Below, piece by piece: positions 39,881-49,063 of a stretch of DNA of 64,000 bases. A program made the translations under genes and the position numbers. This stretch comes from Phycisphaerae bacterium (GTDB taxonomy: Bacteria > Planctomycetota > Phycisphaerae > UBA1845 > Fen-1342): contig CAXXWX010000006.1 of assembly GCA_963675745.2 (NCBI GenBank), positions 64,001-128,000 of the forward strand. The letters run 5' to 3'. The stretch's first letter is position 1; the number at the start of each line of letters is the position of its first letter. Under the pieces are notes generated by a model, which ran no database searches, was not told where the DNA came from, and saw only the letters and a list, made by a program, of their open reading frames with translations.

Positions 39881-40954
39881 TTAGCGCGGCCAGCGCTGCT
39901 CGACTGGCGGCAGGGCCGGGAATTGGCCGTGCGGTTCGGTCTGGTACCAGTAAGCCACCGAGGCGATATCGTCGCACAGCGGCTGGAACTTGCCCGTCGG
40001 CCACCACCCCAGCGCCTGGATCGTCACGCGCAGACCCTGCTGGAAGCGGATCGGGTCCATGATGTGCCAACGATACAGGCCGAACTTGGGCACCTTGTTC
40101 ACCACGTGATGCACCAGTGGCAGCCCGAGGAACGGCGTTGAGTAGGGTTTCTCGCGCTCGTTTTCGCCATAGAAACCCCAGGCCCCGCCGAAGTAATCCT
40201 CGGTGCCCGTGCCGCATATCGTCGGGTGTTCGGCGTCGCCGTCGATGTAGAACTTGATCTCTCCCTCCCCCCACCAGATGTCCGATGACGTGGCCCAGGC
40301 GAGGTAGGTGCCCACGTAATGCCCGTGTCCTTCGACACCTTCGATGATGGTGTGCTCGGGGCACTCGCGCGTGGTCAGAGCGCGGCGCCATTGCGCGTGC
40401 AGATAGGCGGCGTCGTCCGGCACGGGCTGAAGCGCGTAGGTAATCTGGTAGAAGAAGCCGGTGACGGTCTGGTTGTGGTCACTGGTTATGGTGACGCGCG
40501 CCGATTTGCGGAACGGCATGGGCCAGTAGCTGTTCAGGCCGCATTTGGGGTTTACGGCGATCGGCAGCGAGCTCACGCCGGCCTCAAGGTTGTGCCCGCA
40601 GCAGAAGAAATCTCCCAACGGCACCTCGATCGACGGATGGGGCTCGGCGTCCCAGTAGAAGCGCAGCGTGAGGTCGCGCAGGCGTTTGGGGTCGACCGTG
40701 ATCCAGATGTGCTGAATTACGCCGGGACCGTCTATCTCGGCCAGTGTCGCCGTGGCGCCGGGGTCTATGTCGATGCAGGGGCGGACTTTCCAGCCGGGGC
40801 CGAGATCGCGCGCCGGGCTCTTCTCGTCGGGGACCGCGCGTGCAGCGCCACCTTTCTCGCCGGTCGGGTTTTCCGCACAGATTGAACGCGTTTGCGCGGT
40901 GCTGAGCAGGGGCAGGTTTCCGAGGCCCTGGCCAAACGGTGTTGCTGGCGGCAT
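39881..40954 (-). CDS. DUF2961 / GH172-like glycoside hydrolase
   Basis: RSICAENPTGEKG, GPGVIQHIWIT, WWGEGE, GTGTEDYF, YWYQ. Confidence 0.88.
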   Translation of the reverse strand: MPPATPFGQGLGNLPLLSTAQTRSICAENPTGEKGGAARAVPDEKSPARDLGPGWKVRPCIDIDPGATATLAEIDGPGVIQHIWITVDPKRLRDLTLRFYWDAEPHPSIEVPLGDFFCCGHNLEAGVSSLPIAVNPKCGLNSYWPMPFRKSARVTITSDHNQTVTGFFYQITYALQPVPDDAAYLHAQWRRALTTRECPEHTIIEGVEGHGHYVGTYLAWATSSDIWWGEGEIKFYIDGDAEHPTICGTGTEDYFGGAWGFYGENEREKPYSTPFLGLPLVHHVVNKVPKFGLYRWHIMDPIRFQQGLRVTIQALGWWPTGKFQPLCDDIASVAYWYQTEPHGQFPALPPVEQRWPR

Positions 40955-41007
40955 TGTGAGTTCTCCGTTGATGCGCAGTTGTCAGTTAGAGCAAGCTGCG
41001 TTTGCCC

Positions 41008-41092
41008 GTAGCGTACGCCCCCCGAGTCGGACGTGTTTAACCGGCGTACGTTCTCTCGAGGGCACGGCCGACTCGGGGGGGCGGTCGCTTAC
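41008..41092. repeat. REPIN-like inverted doublet, family 2
   Basis: GTAGCG..CGCCCCCCGAGTCGG...CCGACTCGGGGGGGCG; reverse complement aligns with 62120-62203. Confidence 0.8.
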
Positions 41093-41135
41093 GCTCGCGA
41101 TGCTGATTGACGACGCCGGATCGCGCACGGTTGTT

Positions 41136-41819
41136 TCAGTCTCCAGTACCGGCTTCGTGTTTGGCGCTGGAGGTCGAGACGTTCAGTTCCTGACCGCGCA
41201 GTAACCTGCGGATATTCTCGTGATGGCGCGCGATGATCAGCAATCCCAAAGCGGCGGCGACAACCACCAGCGGCCAGCACGCCGCCAGCGGCACGCCGGA
41301 GATCGGCACGGCATAAGTGAACACCGCGACCGGAAACACAACAGCGATGGCGAGCGACCCGAGCGAGACCTTGCCGCTGGCCAAGCGCACAGCGAAGTAA
41401 GCCACCAGGGCGACGACCATTGCCACGGTGAAGTACGGGAATACACCCAGCGCCACGCCGATCGTCGTCGCCACACCCTTGCCGCCTCGAAATGCCAGGT
41501 ACGCGGGATACAGGTGTCCGAGGACGGCGGCCACGCCGACCGCCAGCCAGGCGAGCCAGGCGCCGGCAGCCGGATCCTGGGGGACGCAGAAGAGGCCGAA
41601 TAGCAGGGTCGGCGCCAGGCCCTTAAGTATGTCTAGCACCAGGCACAAGATGCCCCAGCGCCGCCCGAGGACGCGCCCCGCGTTGGTGGCACCGATGTTG
41701 CGGCTGCCGTGCTGGCGAATGTCAACGCCCCGCATTTGCCCGATGATGAATCCAAACGGCACCGCGCCCAGCAGATAAGCGCCGAGCACGAACACCAGGA
41801 CAAGGACGATTGAAGGCAT
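41136..41819 (-). CDS. plsY: Glycerol-3-phosphate acyltransferase PlsY
   Basis: YLLGAVPFG, GS.NIGATN, DILKG, GH.YP...F.GGKGVAT, RH.ENIRR. Confidence 0.96.
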   Translation of the reverse strand: MPSIVLVLVFVLGAYLLGAVPFGFIIGQMRGVDIRQHGSRNIGATNAGRVLGRRWGILCLVLDILKGLAPTLLFGLFCVPQDPAAGAWLAWLAVGVAAVLGHLYPAYLAFRGGKGVATTIGVALGVFPYFTVAMVVALVAYFAVRLASGKVSLGSLAIAVVFPVAVFTYAVPISGVPLAACWPLVVVAAALGLLIIARHHENIRRLLRGQELNVSTSSAKHEAGTGD

Positions 41820-41906
41820 CAACGGCTCCATCGCTGCCGCCGGTGGACCCGGCGCTGGTGAAGCAGGTTAGCGTGGGCGGTGAGACGTGGAAAGCCGGCC
41901 GCGCAG

Positions 41907-42119
41907 CTAATCGTCATCGCGACGGATACGAAGCCAGCGCGGGCGCAGTTGATCGCGCAGCCTGTCGGTCATGCGCAGTCCCATACCACGGGTTTGCTGG
42001 CGATAGATGTGGCGCTGGACATCAGCGACACTTGCGCGTGGTCGGCGACGGGAAGCCAGCCAGGCGCCGAGTGACCAGCACCAGGCCACGACTCTCGCGT
42101 GCCAACTGCGGCGTGTCAA
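41907..42119 (-). CDS. Small Arg-rich hypothetical protein
   Basis: TTG start overlaps upstream TGA; fills the gap to plsY. Confidence 0.35.
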   Translation of the reverse strand: MTRRSWHARVVAWCWSLGAWLASRRRPRASVADVQRHIYRQQTRGMGLRMTDRLRDQLRPRWLRIRRDDD

Positions 42120-42709
42120 CGCTGGACGGCCTGCCTCACGCTGCCGAAGACTTCGTCGGCGGAACGGGATGGTATCGCGGGTTCGCTCCATAGCTGCATT
42201 TTGTCGATGACCCGTTGGGTCTGCTCGCGATAGTTCGTCACGTGACTTGGCCCGCCCTCCGCCGTATCACCCCCCGCGTAGTCAAACGCCAGCAGCCAGC
42301 GGCTCATCTCGCTTTCATACTCCGCCGGGTAAACCAGGGCCGTCACGTAGCGACCACGCTGGGCCTGGCGTCCGCGGTCGGCGAGTTGCGCCGTCGCGCG
42401 GCAGGGTGGCGCCTCAATGTCCGCGATGGCGCGCAGCACCGAGAAGTCCTCGTGGGCCAGCTTCAAGTCGTCACGATAGAAGAACATCCCGCTCTCGAGC
42501 TCAAAGCGCGTCCGCGGAACGCCGCGCAGCTCGACCTGTCCCTCCGGCGAGGCATTCTGAATCTGGTACACCTTTCCATCGCGATACTGTTCGTTTTCGA
42601 GGAGCATCGCGATTTCCTCGGCGGTGTATCCGACGGCGCACCACTGTCCGAAGTCGAACACGTACAGTCCCTTGTAGCGAGGTGGCACCTCAAGCGCAGG
42701 TAGTTGCAT
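42116..42709 (-). CDS. Hypothetical protein
   Basis: 197 aa globular ORF, GGGAG RBS, TATAAT at 42756-42761. Confidence 0.75.
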   Translation of the reverse strand: MQLPALEVPPRYKGLYVFDFGQWCAVGYTAEEIAMLLENEQYRDGKVYQIQNASPEGQVELRGVPRTRFELESGMFFYRDDLKLAHEDFSVLRAIADIEAPPCRATAQLADRGRQAQRGRYVTALVYPAEYESEMSRWLLAFDYAGGDTAEGGPSHVTNYREQTQRVIDKMQLWSEPAIPSRSADEVFGSVRQAVQR

Positions 42710-42798
42710 GCGAATTTGCTCCCGCAGACAGGTTCAGCAGAAGTTCACAAGTGCGATTATAGCCTGTCCGCGGGCGGTGTTGTGCGCAAAATGGGTGG

Positions 42799-42855
42799 AA
42801 AAGAAAGGGGTGGGCGAGCCGAGCATGGGCGTTGGCGGGACTCGACTCGCCCTAC
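42799..42855 (-). terminator. Intrinsic terminator-like hairpin
   Basis: GGGCGAGTCGAG...CTCGGCTCGCCC stem followed by CCCCTTTCTTTT. Confidence 0.6.
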
Positions 42856-42887
42856 ATCAGGGGAACGGAGGCTCACTAAATCCAGGC

Positions 42888-43056
42888 CGACAGGCCGCTC
42901 CAAAGAACGACCCTGGCCCTTGAGTCGGCTCGGCGCCTACGGGCTCGTAACGGCCCCGCCCGGATCTTCCTTACCCTAAGCGGGGCAGCTCGTCCGTGAG
43001 CACGTCACGAGCCGACTCACAATTTCAGACGACCGCCGTCCAAAGCGGCTGTTCCA
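42888..43056 (-). ncRNA. Candidate structured ncRNA (unassigned; 6S-like size)
   Basis: 12-bp perfect stem 43019-43008/42932-42921, inner GCCCCGC/GCGGGGC stem, G-U-rich flanking helices on minus strand, no credible ORF. Confidence 0.45.
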
Positions 43057-43123
43057 GCGTGGCGCTACGCGTTGACCTGTTCGGCAGCGGCCGTCTTTGT
43101 TTCACTTCAACCCGCGCCTCACG

Positions 43124-43696
43124 TCAGGCTTGCGGCGCACGCCTGGCCGCGCGGGGCATCTCCACTTGCTCACCGAGCAGACCCCAGGTGAGCAGTTCAT
43201 TATGTACCAGTTCCTCGAGCAAGCCGGCGGTGATCACCCGGTAACCCAGGTTGAGCACGCGCATTTCCAACTCGCCGGCGATGATCCGCGCCGTGTCGTG
43301 CATGACGCCGTACCGCTTCTCGAGCAGGGTGACCAGCGCCGCCTTACGCCAGGGGCGCGGGCCGCGCTTTGAGTGTCGGCGTTGAACTTGGACGCTGTGG
43401 CGTTTGACTCGGCGCCAACGGCGATGCGCGGCCAATACGTCCGCGACGTCCGACAACCCAGTTTGCTTCAGAACGGCCTGCACGCAACGGAAGAGATATT
43501 CCGACGTCGGCGGCCGCGGCTCGTCCCAGTATTGAAGATGGACTTCGACGGCCTGCACCAGCGGTTCGGAAAGCTTGGGATCGTAGTGGCACGCGCGCAT
43601 CGCCACGGCGACCATGCGGCGCAGCTTGGCGGGCGCAAACAACTCCTGCGTCCCGTCGTGCTTGGCGATGAGAATGGACTTCTTGGCCGTCCTCAC
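43124..43696 (-). CDS. Stand-alone tandem ATP-cone-like protein
   Basis: IAKHDGTQELF...KL...V..VL...G..DVA (cone 1); PW.KA.LV..L...G.....AR.IA.E.E.RV...G...IT..LL.ELV.NEL..WG (cone 2); GTGA overlap with nrdR. Confidence 0.7.
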   Translation of the reverse strand: MRTAKKSILIAKHDGTQELFAPAKLRRMVAVAMRACHYDPKLSEPLVQAVEVHLQYWDEPRPPTSEYLFRCVQAVLKQTGLSDVADVLAAHRRWRRVKRHSVQVQRRHSKRGPRPWRKAALVTLLEKRYGVMHDTARIIAGELEMRVLNLGYRVITAGLLEELVHNELLTWGLLGEQVEMPRAARRAPQA

Positions 43697-44202
43697 GACT
43701 TCGCACCTTCCTCAAACAGACTCCGTTGCCCCGGGATGTCTTCGGCGCGTCGCTCGATGACATCCCGGGCTTCGTCAATGAAGTCGCCGACGTCTTCGAA
43801 CTTTCGGTAAACGCTCGCAAACCGAACGTAAGCCACTTGATCCACTCGCCGCAACACCGCCGCTATGCGCTCGCCGATGGTCTGGCTGGCGACTTCCTTC
43901 TCAAAGTTCGCAATCACGTACTCCTCGACCTCGTCCGCGATCTGGTCGAGTCGTTCGGACGAAATCGGCCGCTTGTAAGCCGCGTGCCGAATCCCGTCCA
44001 TGATTTTCCCGCGGTCATAGGGGACACGTGTCCCGTCGCGCTTGATGACCGAAAGCCGAATGGCCTCTTCGATCCGTTCATAGGTTGTGTAGCGTCGGCC
44101 GCACTTGAGACACTCGCGTCGCCGGCGGACACATTGGCCCACATCACGCGATCGCGAGTCCACGACTTTGTCGTCGTCTTCATGGCAAAACGGACACCGC
44201 AT
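43693..44202 (-). CDS. nrdR: Transcriptional repressor NrdR
   Basis: MRCPFC, VVDSR, RRRREC..C..RYTTYE, VIKRDG, AYVRFASVY. Confidence 0.97.
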   Translation of the reverse strand: MRCPFCHEDDDKVVDSRSRDVGQCVRRRRECLKCGRRYTTYERIEEAIRLSVIKRDGTRVPYDRGKIMDGIRHAAYKRPISSERLDQIADEVEEYVIANFEKEVASQTIGERIAAVLRRVDQVAYVRFASVYRKFEDVGDFIDEARDVIERRAEDIPGQRSLFEEGAKS

Positions 44203-44311
44203 GCATCCGTCACCCGTTGAACTGGGACACGCGACAAAACACGCCGCGCCAGATGACACCGCTTACACCAGCCACGACCCGCGCACCGCAGAACTGACAA
44301 GGCTGTGGCCA

Positions 44312-44362
44312 CACAACCCATTGTGCGAATATCAGCATAGAGCACAACATAATGTGTGTCAA
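44312..44362 (-). promoter_or_regulatory. Tandem NrdR-like boxes overlapping the sigma70 promoter of nrdR
   Basis: CACAACCCATTGTG (44312-44325) and CACAACATAATGTG (44343-44356), 31 bp apart; TTGACA-17-TATGCT (44362-44334). Confidence 0.8.
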
Positions 44363-44418
44363 TAGGAACTGTGATACCCGGGAAGACATTCCGCGCGAAT
44401 CCAGGTATAAACCGGCGC

Positions 44419-45336
44419 ATGGCCGCGTCGTTCGAAATCAACCACGAGGGCATTCGCATCGTCGGGTATTCCGCGGCCGGCGAGCAGACCTGGTTCGCGC
44501 TTCCCGAGCACGACATCGGCTTCGACTTTGGCCGGGCCCCGCGCGAACTGCTCTCCATCAACAACATTTTCCTGAGCCATGGACACATGGATCATGCGGC
44601 GGGGGTTGCGTATTACTTTTCACAACGCATGTTCATCGACAACGCCCCCGGGCGTCTCTACGCGCCCGACCCACTGCTCGATCCGATTCGCGAACTACTG
44701 CGAGTCTGGCGGGACATCGACGGGCAGGAGCCGCCGGCGTATTTACAGTCGGCCATCCCGGGCCAGGATATCGCCACGCGCCGCGACCTTCTCGTGCGGC
44801 CATTCGAGGTCAATCACCTGTGTCGCGGACGCACGGGACGCTTTCAAGCCCTCGGCTTCACGTTGATCGAGGTGCGCAAGAAGCTGAAGGACGAATATCA
44901 CGGGTTGATGGGCCCGCAAATCGTCGCGCTCAAGGAAAAAGGGATCGAGGTTACGCGCCGGATCGAGATGCCGCTGGTGACGTATTGCGGCGACACGGGC
45001 CCGGGGCCGTTCCTCGAGTTGGACTACGTGCGCAACAGCAAGGTGCTCTTGCTGGAATGCACGTTTGTGGAGGCCGAGCATCGCGAGCGCGCGCGCGCCG
45101 GAAACCACATCCACGTCCAGGATCTGGCGGAGATCTGTCCGAAGCTGAACAACGAACGAATAGTGCTGATCCACCTGACGCGGCGGACAAACCTGTCAAA
45201 CGCGAAGAAGGCATTGACCGCCGTATTGGGCAGCTCGATGGGCGACCGCGTGAGCTTTCTCGGTGAACACCGCCGCCGTCGCCGCCCCACCAATCACCAG
45301 CTACGTCAAGACACACCATCCACGCCGGGTGGCTAG
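44419..45336 (+). CDS. MBL-fold tRNase Z-like hydrolase
   Basis: FDFG..P, LSHGHMDH, KLK.EY.GL, Y.GDT, LLECTF, H.H. Confidence 0.8.
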   Translation: MAASFEINHEGIRIVGYSAAGEQTWFALPEHDIGFDFGRAPRELLSINNIFLSHGHMDHAAGVAYYFSQRMFIDNAPGRLYAPDPLLDPIRELLRVWRDIDGQEPPAYLQSAIPGQDIATRRDLLVRPFEVNHLCRGRTGRFQALGFTLIEVRKKLKDEYHGLMGPQIVALKEKGIEVTRRIEMPLVTYCGDTGPGPFLELDYVRNSKVLLLECTFVEAEHRERARAGNHIHVQDLAEICPKLNNERIVLIHLTRRTNLSNAKKALTAVLGSSMGDRVSFLGEHRRRRRPTNHQLRQDTPSTPGG

Positions 45337-45498
45337 TCAGGGTTTATTCGGCGTGGCAGGTTCGCCGTGACATCAACGTCGGCCCTCTGCTTGGTCCTCG
45401 AACTTTGCACAGCGTTTGGTGACGAACTGCCGGGAGCGGCCACAAGAGCCGCATCCTGACAGGCCCTTCCCGCCGCTCCTTGCTACAATCAGCGTGAT

Positions 45499-46449
45499 AT
45501 GAACGCATCGAAACACACATTGCCGATCGCGAAGGCCGAGCGGCCGCGACGCCGGTTGCCGGCCTGGTTGAAGCGCCCGCTGCCGGCGGGTGACGCGATG
45601 CTGAAGACGCGGCAGCTTGTCAACGGGTTGAAGCTTAACACCGTCTGCGTCGAGGCCCGTTGCCCGAACCTGACCGAATGCTGGACGCGGGGAACCGCCA
45701 CATTCATGATTCTCGGCGACTTGTGTACTCGGCGATGCCACTTCTGTGCCGTGACGACCAAGCGGCCGCTACCGCCGGAACCGGATGAGCCCGAACGTCT
45801 GGCCTCGGCCGCCGCACGCATGAACTTGCGACATGTTGTGATCACATCGGTCGCGCGCGATGACCTGCCCGATGAGGGCGCCGGACATTTCGCGGCGTGC
45901 ATTACCAAGACGCGCGAAAAACTGCCCGAGGCGACGATCGAAGTGCTGGTGCCGGATTTCCACGCCGACCGCGAGTTGATCAAGATCGTCACTGATGCGC
46001 AGCCGCGCGTGTATAACCACAACCTGGAGACGGTTGCCAGCCAGCAGAAGCGCGTGCGGCCCGGCGGACGTTATCAGCGCTCGCTGGACGTGTTGCGGAC
46101 TGCCAGGGAACTGGACGCGCGCATGTTGACCAAGAGCGGGTTGATGGTCGGACTGGGCGAGACCCGCGAGGAGCTGGCCGAGGCGATGAAGGACCTGCGC
46201 GGCGTGGACTGTGATCTGCTGACCATCGGGCAGTACTTGAAGCCCGGTGACCGGCACGCCGACGTGCAGCGATATTACACGCCCGCGGAGTTTGACGAGT
46301 TGGCGGAGGAAGCACGACGACTGGGATTCATGGGCGTGGCCAGCGGCCCGTTCGTGCGCAGCAGCTACTTCGCCGAGTCGCTGATCAGCGCGGTGGGGCA
46401 GGCTCCCACAGGCGGTGGGCCGGCTGATAATGTGTCCGGCGCGACCTAG
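45499..46449 (+). CDS. lipA: Lipoyl synthase
   Basis: CVEARCPNLTEC, CTRRCHFC, TIGQYL, VRSSY. Confidence 0.97.
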   Translation: MNASKHTLPIAKAERPRRRLPAWLKRPLPAGDAMLKTRQLVNGLKLNTVCVEARCPNLTECWTRGTATFMILGDLCTRRCHFCAVTTKRPLPPEPDEPERLASAAARMNLRHVVITSVARDDLPDEGAGHFAACITKTREKLPEATIEVLVPDFHADRELIKIVTDAQPRVYNHNLETVASQQKRVRPGGRYQRSLDVLRTARELDARMLTKSGLMVGLGETREELAEAMKDLRGVDCDLLTIGQYLKPGDRHADVQRYYTPAEFDELAEEARRLGFMGVASGPFVRSSYFAESLISAVGQAPTGGGPADNVSGAT

Positions 46450-46765
46450 CGTGTGCGATTACGGCATCGCGATCGGGAAGGTCCAAAAGCAGTTATTTGT
46501 TGCTCACGGTGTGGCTGACTTGTAGAATCAAGCATCAGAGCGTAATCGCCGTTCCGGTCGCAGATCATACGCCGGGTGGACTTGCGGCAGTATCGGTGTG
46601 GTGGAAGGGTTAGGCGTGCCGAGGCGCGTTGGCGTTGCGTACGCTGACGGGCCGGTGGTCGGCATGTCGAAACACGGTGCCGACAGGGCTGCAAGCACCC
46701 GTATCACCGGGGTTTAGCGCAGACCTGTGTCGTCTCCGTTGGGCAATCACGACAAGGAGTCCACA

Positions 46766-49063
46766 ATGCGTCTGCGCAGCACGGTAGCGGTAGCATCTCT
46801 CGTAATCCTGTTCGGCCTATCCGCGCCGCAGGTTCTGGTCGCTGAAGACACTTTTGACACGCCTTACTACTACACGTATTTCGATCAGCCGGTGTGGCTG
46901 GGCCTGCGCACCGACGCAGTGGCCGTCTTCAACGATGCAGGTATGGAGGTGCGTGGTGGCGAGCTGACCGCGGTTGGCAAGCTCGAGGCATTCGAAATCA
47001 TGGAGAGCGACTTGCAGCCGGTACCGGTCAACGGCTGGCAATTCGCCACGGTTCCGGCACCGGACGCGGCGAGCGTGGAGACGTGGGTTGCGACGCTGTC
47101 CGAGTCGGAGGCTGCCCAGTTTGTCTCCCCGGTTCTGTTGAACGAGTTCGGCCCGGTGATTATCACGCCGAAGATGTTCGTGCAGTTTGCCGAGGACATT
47201 ACCCCGGCGCAGGCCGACCTGTTGCTATCAAGCGTCAATGCCGGCGAAGTTATCGATCGCAGCTTTGGCGGCGTGGTAAATTCGTATCGCGTCCGCGCGA
47301 CGGCCGGCAATGGCTTTGACGTGTTGAACGCGGCCAACATCCTGGCCACGCTGCCCGAGGTGGTCTATGCCGAACCGGCCTTTGTCTGGCGCGGCAAGCT
47401 GGACTTGATCCCCAACGACACCTACTGGAACTACCTCTGGGGGCTGCACCAGACCAGCAACTACGACATGGACGCGCCCGCGGCCTGGGACATCAGCACC
47501 GGCAGCTCTGACATCAAGGTCATGATCATGGACCTGGGTATCCAGCAGGATCACCCGGACATCAACCAGATCCCCGGCATGGACTTCACCGGGCGCGATG
47601 TTCCCGGCGGCGGCCCCTACAACTACTGCGACAATCACGGCACGCAGGTTGCCGGTTGCGTCTCGGCGATCATCAACAATAGCATCGGGGTGGTCGGCAT
47701 CGCACCGGGCTGCAAGTCGGTATCGGCCAAGATCGGCGAGGCCGACACGCCGTGCAGCGTGTACTTCAGCGGCAGCTCCGAGTGGATCGCCAATGCGCTG
47801 TATTGGGCGCGCGACAACGGTTATCGCGTCAGCAGTGCCAGCATCTCGACCGGGACGTCCGGCGCGGTAACGGGCGCCTATAACACGACGCGCGGTGACG
47901 GGATGGTCCACTTCGCGGCCAGCGGCAACGACGGGGCCGGTACGGTCGATTACCCGGCCAGCCTTGCATCAGTCAACGCCATCGGCGCGATCAGCTCCAA
48001 CGGCAATCGGGCCAGTTTCAGCAACTACGGCACCGGACTGGCATTTGTCGCTCCTGGTAACAACATCTATACGACTGACCGCACCGGCTCGGCCGGCGAC
48101 TTCGGCGGCGATTATGCCTTCGGCGTGAGCGGCACGTCATTCTCCACGCCCTATGCCGCCGGTGTGGCGGCGATGGTGCTCTCGGTCAATCCGGCGATGA
48201 TTCCCGAGCATGTCGAGCAGGTGATGCAGGACAACGCCATGGACCGCGGCAGTGCCGGGTACGACACCGTTTACGGTTGGGGCATTGTCAAGGCGTACGG
48301 CTCGATGGTTGACGCTCAGAACTTCCAGACCGAGGTTACTGTGACCGTCAATTCGCTGCCGACCAGTGGCGCGTGGGTCAATACCATTCCAGCCGCCGAC
48401 CTCGACGGCCTTGGCAGCGGTTTCACCGATTTCACCCGCCGTTATGATGTCGATACGGGCATTCTCTACACCGCCGGTGCGACGCTGAACGGCGCGCCGT
48501 TCCTGGAGTGGCGCGTGGACGGTGTGCCGCAGGGCTCGAGCACTTCGGTGAGTCTCACGGTGAGCGACGACGTGGAGGTTACCTCGGTCTACGCCACGTC
48601 CATCTACGTTGATTCGGATCCGACCGGCGCGTACATCGCGATCGTGCCGACCACCGATGCACTCGGGGCCACGACCAGCGGGATTGCTCCGCGCGACCTG
48701 GCATTTGCCGATGGCACGTTGGTCACGCTGACCGCCTCGGCCACGCACGGCGAGCGTGAGTTTGTCGAGTGGCAACTGGGCGGCGTGCCAGTGTCGGCAA
48801 TCCCGACATACCAGTTCACCGTCAGCGGCAATGCCGCCCCGGTGGCGATCTACCAACTGACCGGGTACCCGGTCGGTGACCTCAACTGTGACGGCTTGAT
48901 CAACAACGGCGACATCGACCCGTTTGTTCTGGCGGTTACCGACGAGTCCGGCTACGCAGCGGCTTACCCCGAATGCGACCGAATGCTCGCTGACTGCAAC
49001 GGCGATACCCTGGTCAACAACGGTGACATCGACTCGTTCGTCGCGCTGCTTTCAGGGAAATAG
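46766..49063 (+). CDS. Secreted S8 subtilase with C-terminal dockerin-like domain
   Basis: Signal peptide; MDLG, HGTQVAG, GTSFSTP triad; duplicated DxNxDxxxNNGDID. Confidence 0.92.
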   Translation: MRLRSTVAVASLVILFGLSAPQVLVAEDTFDTPYYYTYFDQPVWLGLRTDAVAVFNDAGMEVRGGELTAVGKLEAFEIMESDLQPVPVNGWQFATVPAPDAASVETWVATLSESEAAQFVSPVLLNEFGPVIITPKMFVQFAEDITPAQADLLLSSVNAGEVIDRSFGGVVNSYRVRATAGNGFDVLNAANILATLPEVVYAEPAFVWRGKLDLIPNDTYWNYLWGLHQTSNYDMDAPAAWDISTGSSDIKVMIMDLGIQQDHPDINQIPGMDFTGRDVPGGGPYNYCDNHGTQVAGCVSAIINNSIGVVGIAPGCKSVSAKIGEADTPCSVYFSGSSEWIANALYWARDNGYRVSSASISTGTSGAVTGAYNTTRGDGMVHFAASGNDGAGTVDYPASLASVNAIGAISSNGNRASFSNYGTGLAFVAPGNNIYTTDRTGSAGDFGGDYAFGVSGTSFSTPYAAGVAAMVLSVNPAMIPEHVEQVMQDNAMDRGSAGYDTVYGWGIVKAYGSMVDAQNFQTEVTVTVNSLPTSGAWVNTIPAADLDGLGSGFTDFTRRYDVDTGILYTAGATLNGAPFLEWRVDGVPQGSSTSVSLTVSDDVEVTSVYATSIYVDSDPTGAYIAIVPTTDALGATTSGIAPRDLAFADGTLVTLTASATHGEREFVEWQLGGVPVSAIPTYQFTVSGNAAPVAIYQLTGYPVGDLNCDGLINNGDIDPFVLAVTDESGYAAAYPECDRMLADCNGDTLVNNGDIDSFVALLSGK

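Follow-up and report, generated by a model that had tools for sequence, protein, structure and literature searches.

A free double ATP cone encoded behind nrdR in Phycisphaerae, very probably the remainder of a class III ribonucleotide reductase

The nrdR operon of a Phycisphaerae bacterium encodes, behind the repressor itself, a 190-aa protein made of two ATP cones and no catalytic domain. We analysed this gene within a window of 64,000 nucleotides (the whole stretch of DNA under study; Table 1), in the genome to which the window belongs (G000, 91% complete) and in related genomes. The double cone is real and conserved and its origin is clear, sequence comparison identifying it as a free ATP cone derived from the reductase NrdD. 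Its most likely role, which we put forward tentatively, is that of a nucleotide-dependent partner of NrdR. The earlier note on this DNA had singled out a stand-alone double-cone gene in an NrdR-controlled operon, and both the gene and the boxes upstream proved to be conserved.

Table 1. Features of the nrdR-cone operon, in coordinates of the window
Feature	Position	Strand	Basis or remark
Sigma70-type promoter of the nrdR operon, TTGACA-17-TATGCT	44334..44362	-	10/12 matches; TTGAC hexamer aligned in 25/25 family loci
Promoter elements of the nrdR operon	TTGACA 44362-44357; 17 bp; TATGCT 44339-44334	-	
NrdR-type box 1, 16-mer, fills the -35/-10 spacer	44342..44357	.	18.0 bits; predicted site
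NrdR-type box 2, 16-mer, over the predicted start site	44311..44326	.	15.4 bits; predicted site
nrdR, 169 aa: Zn ribbon 1-42, ATP cone 51-137	43693..44202	-	Pfam PF22811 + PF03477; TIGR00244
NrdR C-terminal QxxLF motif, residues 159-163	43714..43728	-	clamp-binding-like by sequence
Stand-alone double ATP-cone protein, 190 aa, probable remnant of the N-terminus of nrdR-linked class III NrdD	43124..43696	-	homology, synteny, structure prediction
Cone 1 (about residues 6-99), a complete ATP cone: K12, E18, K24, H91, R95, R99	43400..43681	-	Pfam, predicted structure, residue counts
Cone 2 (about residues 103-172), three-helix cone fold	43181..43390	-	predicted structure and profile comparison

Structure and nucleotide site of the double cone

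The start of the 190-aa frame overlaps the stop of nrdR by four bases (GTGA), the coupling that the earlier note had read here. Pfam recognises a single cone in the protein (PF03477, residues 10-95, E 1.7e-7, 32.1 bits against a cut-off of 25.8), and the same profile matches 103 of the 104 aligned homologues at E<=0.01. AlphaFold2, run on the 104-sequence alignment, predicts two units with a mean pLDDT of 93.6. The first is modelled as a beta roof with a four-helix bundle and superimposes on 5olk with Z 13.3 and an rmsd of 1.6 over 92 residues. The second, on which half there is no Pfam match, is predicted with a pLDDT of 91.9 when folded alone, and a structure search with it returned ATP cones as the best six of 48,161 chains (Z 10.5-6.5, next chain 5.9). 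Its top match, with an rmsd of 2.2 over 76 residues, is the cone of NrdR (Z 10.5, only about 1 above 5olk); Foldseek gives at best E 4.5e-3 and TM 0.78. When the two units are aligned with each other, hhalign reports 87.7% (E 3.4e-6) with NrdD forms included and only 4.2% with the free forms alone. The two cone units first read from the translation are thus both recovered, cone 1 by Pfam and model, cone 2 by model and profile; the second has the fold and lacks the nucleotide motif, having no KRDGxxE roof, no equivalent of K24 and no fourth helix.

Ligand residues were mapped by alignment to P. copri NrdD (Lys7, Arg8, Tyr83, Arg87 and Arg91, in the available part of PMC11226230) and to S. coelicolor NrdR (K50, R51, E56 and K62, in that of PMC9110341). 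Among the free forms, K12, E18, R95 and R99 of cone 1 are present in 34/34 and K24 in 33/34. The Arg of the roof (KRDG) is found in 19/34 (H13 in the window's protein), the outer-site Tyr equivalent to Tyr83 is His in 27/34 (H91 here), and Leu mostly stands in for the first Tyr of helix 4, so that affinity or ATP/dATP discrimination may have changed. Because the ligand residues are kept in cone 1 and the motif is missing in cone 2, the former probably binds adenine nucleotide and the latter probably does not; of the ATP/dATP-sensing double cone originally envisaged, only one half looks nucleotide-competent.

By both profile and fold, cone 1 is closest to the cones of P. aeruginosa NrdA (a double cone; 5im3), L. 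blandensis NrdB (5olk) and P. copri NrdD (8p23). The likeness to P. aeruginosa NrdA extends to the division of labour, its outer cone keeping the ligand residues and its inner cone not (available part of PMC9669993). Unlike these cones, which are fused to a reductase subunit and act in cis, the protein described here is a separate polypeptide, with His in place of the outer-site Tyr. It also shares the ATP-cone fold with NrdR (7p37, 9fvr), keeping in cone 1 the equivalents of S. coelicolor K50, E56 and K62, and one database labels homologue P0010 'NrdR family'. Unlike NrdR, however, it has no Zn ribbon, neither of the two CxxC pairs and no RRRR, nor does it match any NCBIfam model; its descent appears to be from NrdD and not from a duplication of nrdR.

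Conservation and distribution of the cone gene

The cone gene is single-copy and free of internal stops in all 36 genomes of the window's own family (f1) and in all three of family f2, and no stop interrupts it in any of 40 matches. At a median identity of 41%, the frame stays open throughout the 36 family genomes (34 genera), its end is conserved and the nucleotide-site residues are invariant; all 41 aligned free forms end 9-41 residues past cone 2. Comparison of 30 family sequences gives pN<pS in 435/435 pairs, with a median dN/dS of 0.42-0.46 against 0.14 for nrdR, synonymous sites being near saturation. Single copy number, intact frames and purifying selection therefore rule out a pseudogene.

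In 25/25 family loci the gene directly follows nrdR, with a length of 185-212 aa; its start overlaps the nrdR stop in 23 of them, by four bases in 20. Both the synteny and the conservation of the stop codon, to which the earlier note had pointed as checks, hold across relatives. With the 190-aa query, the gene was not found in 21/21 other genomes of the order, belonging to 9 of its 11 families, and several further families in the class likewise gave no match. A profile search detected free-sized forms in class families f14 (1/1) and f16 (7/7), where nrdR and the cone gene are separated by gaps of about 11-88 bases with no overlap; free forms persist in four families and at least two orders. 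Scanning genome contigs with a pattern from the single 190-aa protein yielded no relative, and the close alignment yielded three. Records of homologues name Planctomycetota, under the database labels 'ATP cone domain-containing' or hypothetical.

Two neighbours deserve mention. Divergent from nrdR lies an RNase Z-like metallo-beta-lactamase gene (44419-45336, +), present in 24/25 family loci and preceded by a conserved AAGACA-17-TATAAA element (44383-44421, +) that ends seven bases before its ATG; this arrangement suggests a transcript without a leader, whose promoter adjoins that of nrdR in the opposite orientation. Downstream of the cone gene, a 197-aa protein (42116-42709, -) has no Pfam, NCBIfam or Atlas match and a TATAAT about 60 bases upstream. 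It occurs in 36/65 genomes searched, all inside the class, and was rejected as a part of the nrdR-cone module, since families without the cone gene have it too and it is often encoded at a different place in the genome.

Probable origin from an nrdR-linked NrdD

The 221 homologue matches include proteins of 585-713 aa that align over their first ~190 residues, and 12 of 19 long homologues scanned match NRDD at E<=0.01. We compared 80 loci, namely 77 picked for family spread among 150 listed of 499 matches and 3 from family f2, a choice whose proportions are not those of a random sample. The gene nrdR lies just upstream in 78/80. Eleven loci encode an intact NrdD with ENSN, HxHD, xxCCRL and R[IV]VGY[FY]S (L039 scoring 408.5 bits with TIGR02487), 56 have lost the catalytic motifs and kept the cones, nine consist of the cones alone and four partial loci were set aside. 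Among the catalytically dead forms, nine (718-821 aa) keep the zinc site, and the cysteines in five cases, and have no glycyl-radical motif; the other 47 are truncated (475-740 aa), all but one without ENSN and CCR. Above its cut-off, nrdG occurs in 11/11 genomes with an intact NrdD, 5/9 with the 718-821-aa forms and 3/47 with truncated forms. The truncated forms share 46% and 51% identity with intact NrdD over the two cones and 11% over the core, against 72, 67 and 75% among the intact enzymes.

Since distant homologues run on into the NrdD catalytic domain, and intact, dead and cone-only forms occupy one operon slot, the window's gene appears as the end point of a series: it is very probably what remains of a class III nrdD whose ancestral setting was an nrdR-nrdD-nrdG operon, the barrel and glycyl-radical domain having been lost. 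The earlier note had reckoned that homologues continuing into NrdD would betray a truncated pseudogene; the continuation exists in distant homologues, and the pseudogene does not follow from it, the gene being under selection. Longer forms were also sought with a word index at E<=1e-20, without a match, which is weak evidence. Like the double-cone class III NrdD of the CCR finger-loop type found in nrdR-nrdD-nrdG operons, the 190-aa protein occupies the slot after nrdR, matches the full length of the two-cone N-terminus (27-33% identity) and has the same K/R nucleotide contacts in cone 1. Unlike it, it is a free protein that stops, at a conserved position, short of any NxN flap, catalytic barrel, finger-loop cysteines or glycyl-radical domain, and has no accompanying nrdG.

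In a cone-region tree built by a quick method (85 rows, f1 thinned to nine, the four partial rows omitted), the 18 free forms fall on one branch with an SH-aLRT of 86, too low to prove a single origin, and several dead forms intermingle with intact NrdD. This topology suggests one truncation and several losses of catalysis.

The dead forms merit attention of their own. The nrdR-linked NrdD-like proteins of 475-820 aa (L040-L049, L074-L131) have no glycyl-radical motif and mostly lack the catalytic cysteines and nrdG, making them a candidate pseudo-enzyme family in their own right. Five loci (L076, L077, L083, L089, L094) encode NrdDs of about 800 aa with ENSN, CCRL and zinc site, and with nrdG in the genome, that lack the motif of the glycyl-radical glycine; recent loss or an unusual radical site may account for them.

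Ribonucleotide reductases of the genome and the class

The sole ribonucleotide reductase (RNR) of G000 is NrdJ, a 987-aa frame (TIGR02504, 664 bits) without a cone, encoded on another contig with boxes of its own; Pfam cones occur in this genome in NrdR and the 190-aa protein alone. Neither NrdD (by profile or tblastn) nor NrdB was found in the 91% complete assembly, and the best nrdG candidate scores 44.9 bits against a cut-off of 131. A weak tblastn match of the NrdD core on contig C13 (E 2.6e-4) was rejected as an unrelated repeat-rich frame. NrdD (PF13597) is found in 0/36 family genomes and in one of the 80 class genomes searched (of 88), there with its own cone.

The cone gene is present in 47 of these 80 genomes and absent from 33, in all of which NrdR occurs. 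All 80 possess a class I or II RNR, and among these RNRs only one bears cones: the enzymes of all 47 genomes with the gene lack a Pfam cone, as do those of 32 of the 33 genomes without it. Two class genomes contain additional cone matches, in which an ATP cone is fused to a P-loop kinase (L170, G164:C2; L171, G006:C65); on inspection, the kinase part resembles 2-phosphoglycerate kinase.

Promoter and NrdR-type boxes

The predicted promoter of the nrdR operon, proposed in the earlier note, is the sole promoter-like match in 42600-44600 (shuffled sequences giving 0.4 +/- 0.7). The two boxes described with it also hold in position and spacing: they lie 31 bp apart, leaving a 15-bp spacer, and overlap the promoter. 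Their stated pattern, CACAA-N4-TGTG, is only approximate, the cores being 14-bp imperfect palindromes, and they differ by 3 and 4 mismatches from a generic NrdR-box consensus. The -35 hexamer and both boxes can be aligned in 25/25 family loci, 21 of which score best at an offset of 31 or 32 between the boxes. A 15-16-bp spacer is the common NrdR-box geometry (available part of PMC12051234). Rfam gave no match in 40000-47000 at E<=1.

A matrix built from the nrdR promoters of 24 other genomes was scanned over the 5.2-Mb genome. The nrdR pair ranks 1 of 109 above-threshold pairs, a rank that is partly circular because orthologous promoters supplied the matrix. Ranks 3 and 5, which are independent of training, go to two pairs located upstream of nrdJ (G000:C3:44740-44885), and these support reading the motifs as putative NrdR boxes; the proximal pair is arranged like the nrdR promoter, as TTGAC-box-(-10)-box. 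Other high-scoring pairs (C26:545790, C26:751188, C6:19711, C23:122365, C27:128283 and C10:186210) may belong to an extended regulon, or to a different regulator with a similar motif; two of them precede genes that are presumably smc and mraZ.

At a threshold of at least 15 bits, pairs precede nrdR in 30/30 f1 loci (24 of which trained the matrix; 6/6 of the others), 3/3 f2 loci and 4/8 loci of f14/f16, in 5/30 class loci without the cone gene and in 25/64 long-form (NrdD-like) loci. The nrdJ promoters of genomes without the cone gene score in 5 of 6 cases (9/18 nrdJ loci being parseable overall). Within these related genomes, and with a family-trained matrix, the pattern suggests that the boxes at the nrdR promoter are retained to control the level of the cone gene. 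The layout recalls the Streptomyces nrdRJ operon, where nrdR likewise comes first and paired NrdR boxes cover the promoter (available part of PMC9110341); unlike there, the second gene is non-catalytic, and nrdJ, preceded by separate boxes, sits on a different contig.

The C-terminal tail of NrdR

NrdR itself is unambiguous (TIGR00244, 165.5 bits against a cut-off of 124.65) and ends in a QxxLF motif, QRSLF in the window's genome. The motif resembles the beta-clamp-binding motif QL(S/D)LF (available part of PMC9690074), position 2 not being Leu, and makes NrdR a candidate clamp binder. Among the tails read (in the class L003-L038 and L132-L169, 8 loci unparsed), QxxLF lies near the C-terminus of 69/71 class NrdRs versus 0/64 parsed NrdRs outside the class. 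It is found in 41/41 NrdRs adjoining a free cone gene and in 28/30 class NrdRs without one; a tie between tail and cone gene was accordingly rejected, and the tail is, on these counts, a class-wide trait independent of the gene. Of the 3,524 frames in G000 that are 300 aa or longer, only 13 carry QxxLF within their last 30 residues, among them proteins that we take to be RuvB and XseA. Seven of the 56 dead NrdD forms also end in QxxLF, the parsed NrdRs beside them being without it (L046, L092, L096, L113, L115, L116, L130). The beta-clamp gene dnaN lies in the same window (about 1350-2075, +), about 41 kb from nrdR. By titles and abstract openings, a literature search on NrdR and the clamp found no publication linking the two.

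Possible roles of the double cone

Partnership with NrdR could work as follows. The double cone and NrdR would be made from one transcript, and the level of the former would rise when NrdR leaves its boxes at low dATP. Cone 1 would bind ATP or dATP through the retained K12, E18, K24, R95 and R99, cone 2 serving as a nucleotide-free spacer or docking unit. The protein would act in trans, NrdR being the likeliest target, since NrdR oligomerises, and is switched, via its own cones (available part of PMC9110341). Contact between the cones of the two proteins would displace the balance of NrdR between an inactive ATP oligomer and the dATP/ATP tetramer that binds DNA, and would thereby determine at what dATP level, or how fast, nrdJ is repressed. 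Helping and opposing repression are both compatible with this scheme, in which an enzyme would have become a small regulator.

The pointers to NrdR are indirect: the 23/25 start-stop overlaps within the family, and the greater frequency of box pairs at nrdR promoters followed by a cone gene. Adjacency and overlap are inherited from nrdR-nrdD and need no functional link. Against the partnership count the gaps in place of overlap at the f14/f16 loci, the 33/80 class genomes in which NrdR occurs without the cone gene, and the weaker selection on the latter than on nrdR. A scan for NrdR residues that track the cone gene gave four weak candidates, none of them clean, and mutual information between NrdR and cone, in paired alignments of 94 rows (about 84 effective) that are too shallow to count, gave no signal, peaking at z 7.15 against 5.8-7.4 when the partners were shuffled 10 times.

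It is possible, if rather unlikely, that the protein is instead a nucleotide-gated adaptor or homo-oligomer working on some other target in replication or nucleotide metabolism, or a dATP/ATP buffer, NrdR controlling its level only. The retained nucleotide contacts speak for such a function, and the free forms share invariant residues of their own, such as R137, present in 34/34 and variable in NrdD. A protein sink would be small next to cellular dATP pools, which counts against a buffer, and there is no linked candidate target, the downstream 197-aa gene being no exception given its distribution. Self-association has some basis: D14 and R99 match the Asp9-Arg91 bridge of the P. copri NrdD cone dimer (available part of PMC11226230), and two-nucleotide cones of the type of cone 1 are described as specialised in self-interaction (available part of PMC9110341).

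The free cones might also constitute a detachable activity subunit of the cone-less class II NrdJ, inhibiting it in trans at high dATP, a reading that we regard as unlikely. The earlier note had suggested a detachable subunit for a cone-less RNR elsewhere in the genome. For NrdD this found no support, given 0/36 family genomes; for NrdJ, the enzyme is indeed cone-less and the sole RNR of G000, cone-less class I/II RNRs accompany the gene in all 47 genomes that have it, and box pairs at both promoters imply that the cone gene and nrdJ would be co-induced. This reading is weakened, however, because 32/33 genomes without the gene likewise have only cone-less RNRs, so that a cone-less RNR does not require it. 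The gene was not found adjoining nrdJ, and some genomes with dead NrdD carry other cone-bearing ORFs of ~900 aa. Moreover, class II enzymes generate their radical without depending on contact between subunits, and the single cone-bearing one studied showed no activity regulation (both from the available part of PMC9669993).

A near-vestigial relic in slow decay, kept mainly by its transcriptional fusion to nrdR, would fit the failure to find the gene in 9/11 families of the order and several others of the class, the graded decay of nrdD across the phylum and a dN/dS three times that of nrdR. We consider it improbable in view of the open frame and conserved end in all 36 family genomes, the nucleotide-site residues that stay invariant at 41% identity, and the persistence of free forms across orders. 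That the cones, derived as they are from NrdD, form the detached N-terminal part of an NrdD still working from another locus is largely refuted, because the only NrdD among the 80 class genomes bears its own cone and the 91% complete G000 yielded neither NrdD nor an nrdG above cut-off.

Significance

A full-text literature search returned no title or abstract opening on ATP cones that stand alone as proteins, on a clamp motif in NrdR or on catalytically dead NrdD next to nrdR; older papers could mention such proteins. Earlier work on the distribution of ATP cones and on NrdR regulons is reportedly to be found in Aravind 2000, Rodionov and Gelfand 2005 and Jonna 2015. In the parts available of the literature covered (including PMC9110341, PMC11226230, PMC9669993, PMC12051234, PMC4989314 and bioRxiv 2025.03.28.645925), ATP cones are fused to the protein that they control, and no protein co-regulator of NrdR is described.

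A cone that is conserved, free of any enzyme and controlled by NrdR would sense dNTPs in trans; should it prove to bind NrdR, it would come close to a new kind of regulator. Being small and confidently modelled, the 190-aa protein lends itself to direct tests of nucleotide and partner binding. Many of the long NrdD-like genes of the phylum lack catalytic motifs, and a capacity for anaerobic ribonucleotide reduction deduced from them would therefore be wrong. More broadly, one operon slot displays a graded path from enzyme through pseudo-enzyme to regulatory domain. We offer as a conjecture, falling short of even chances, that the nrdR-linked NrdD of Planctomycetota has repeatedly turned sensor, first as a dead enzyme and then, in this class, as cones alone; that the product would be the first dedicated co-regulator of NrdR, hetero-oligomerising with it and resetting its dATP threshold; and that NrdR may dock on the clamp via QxxLF.
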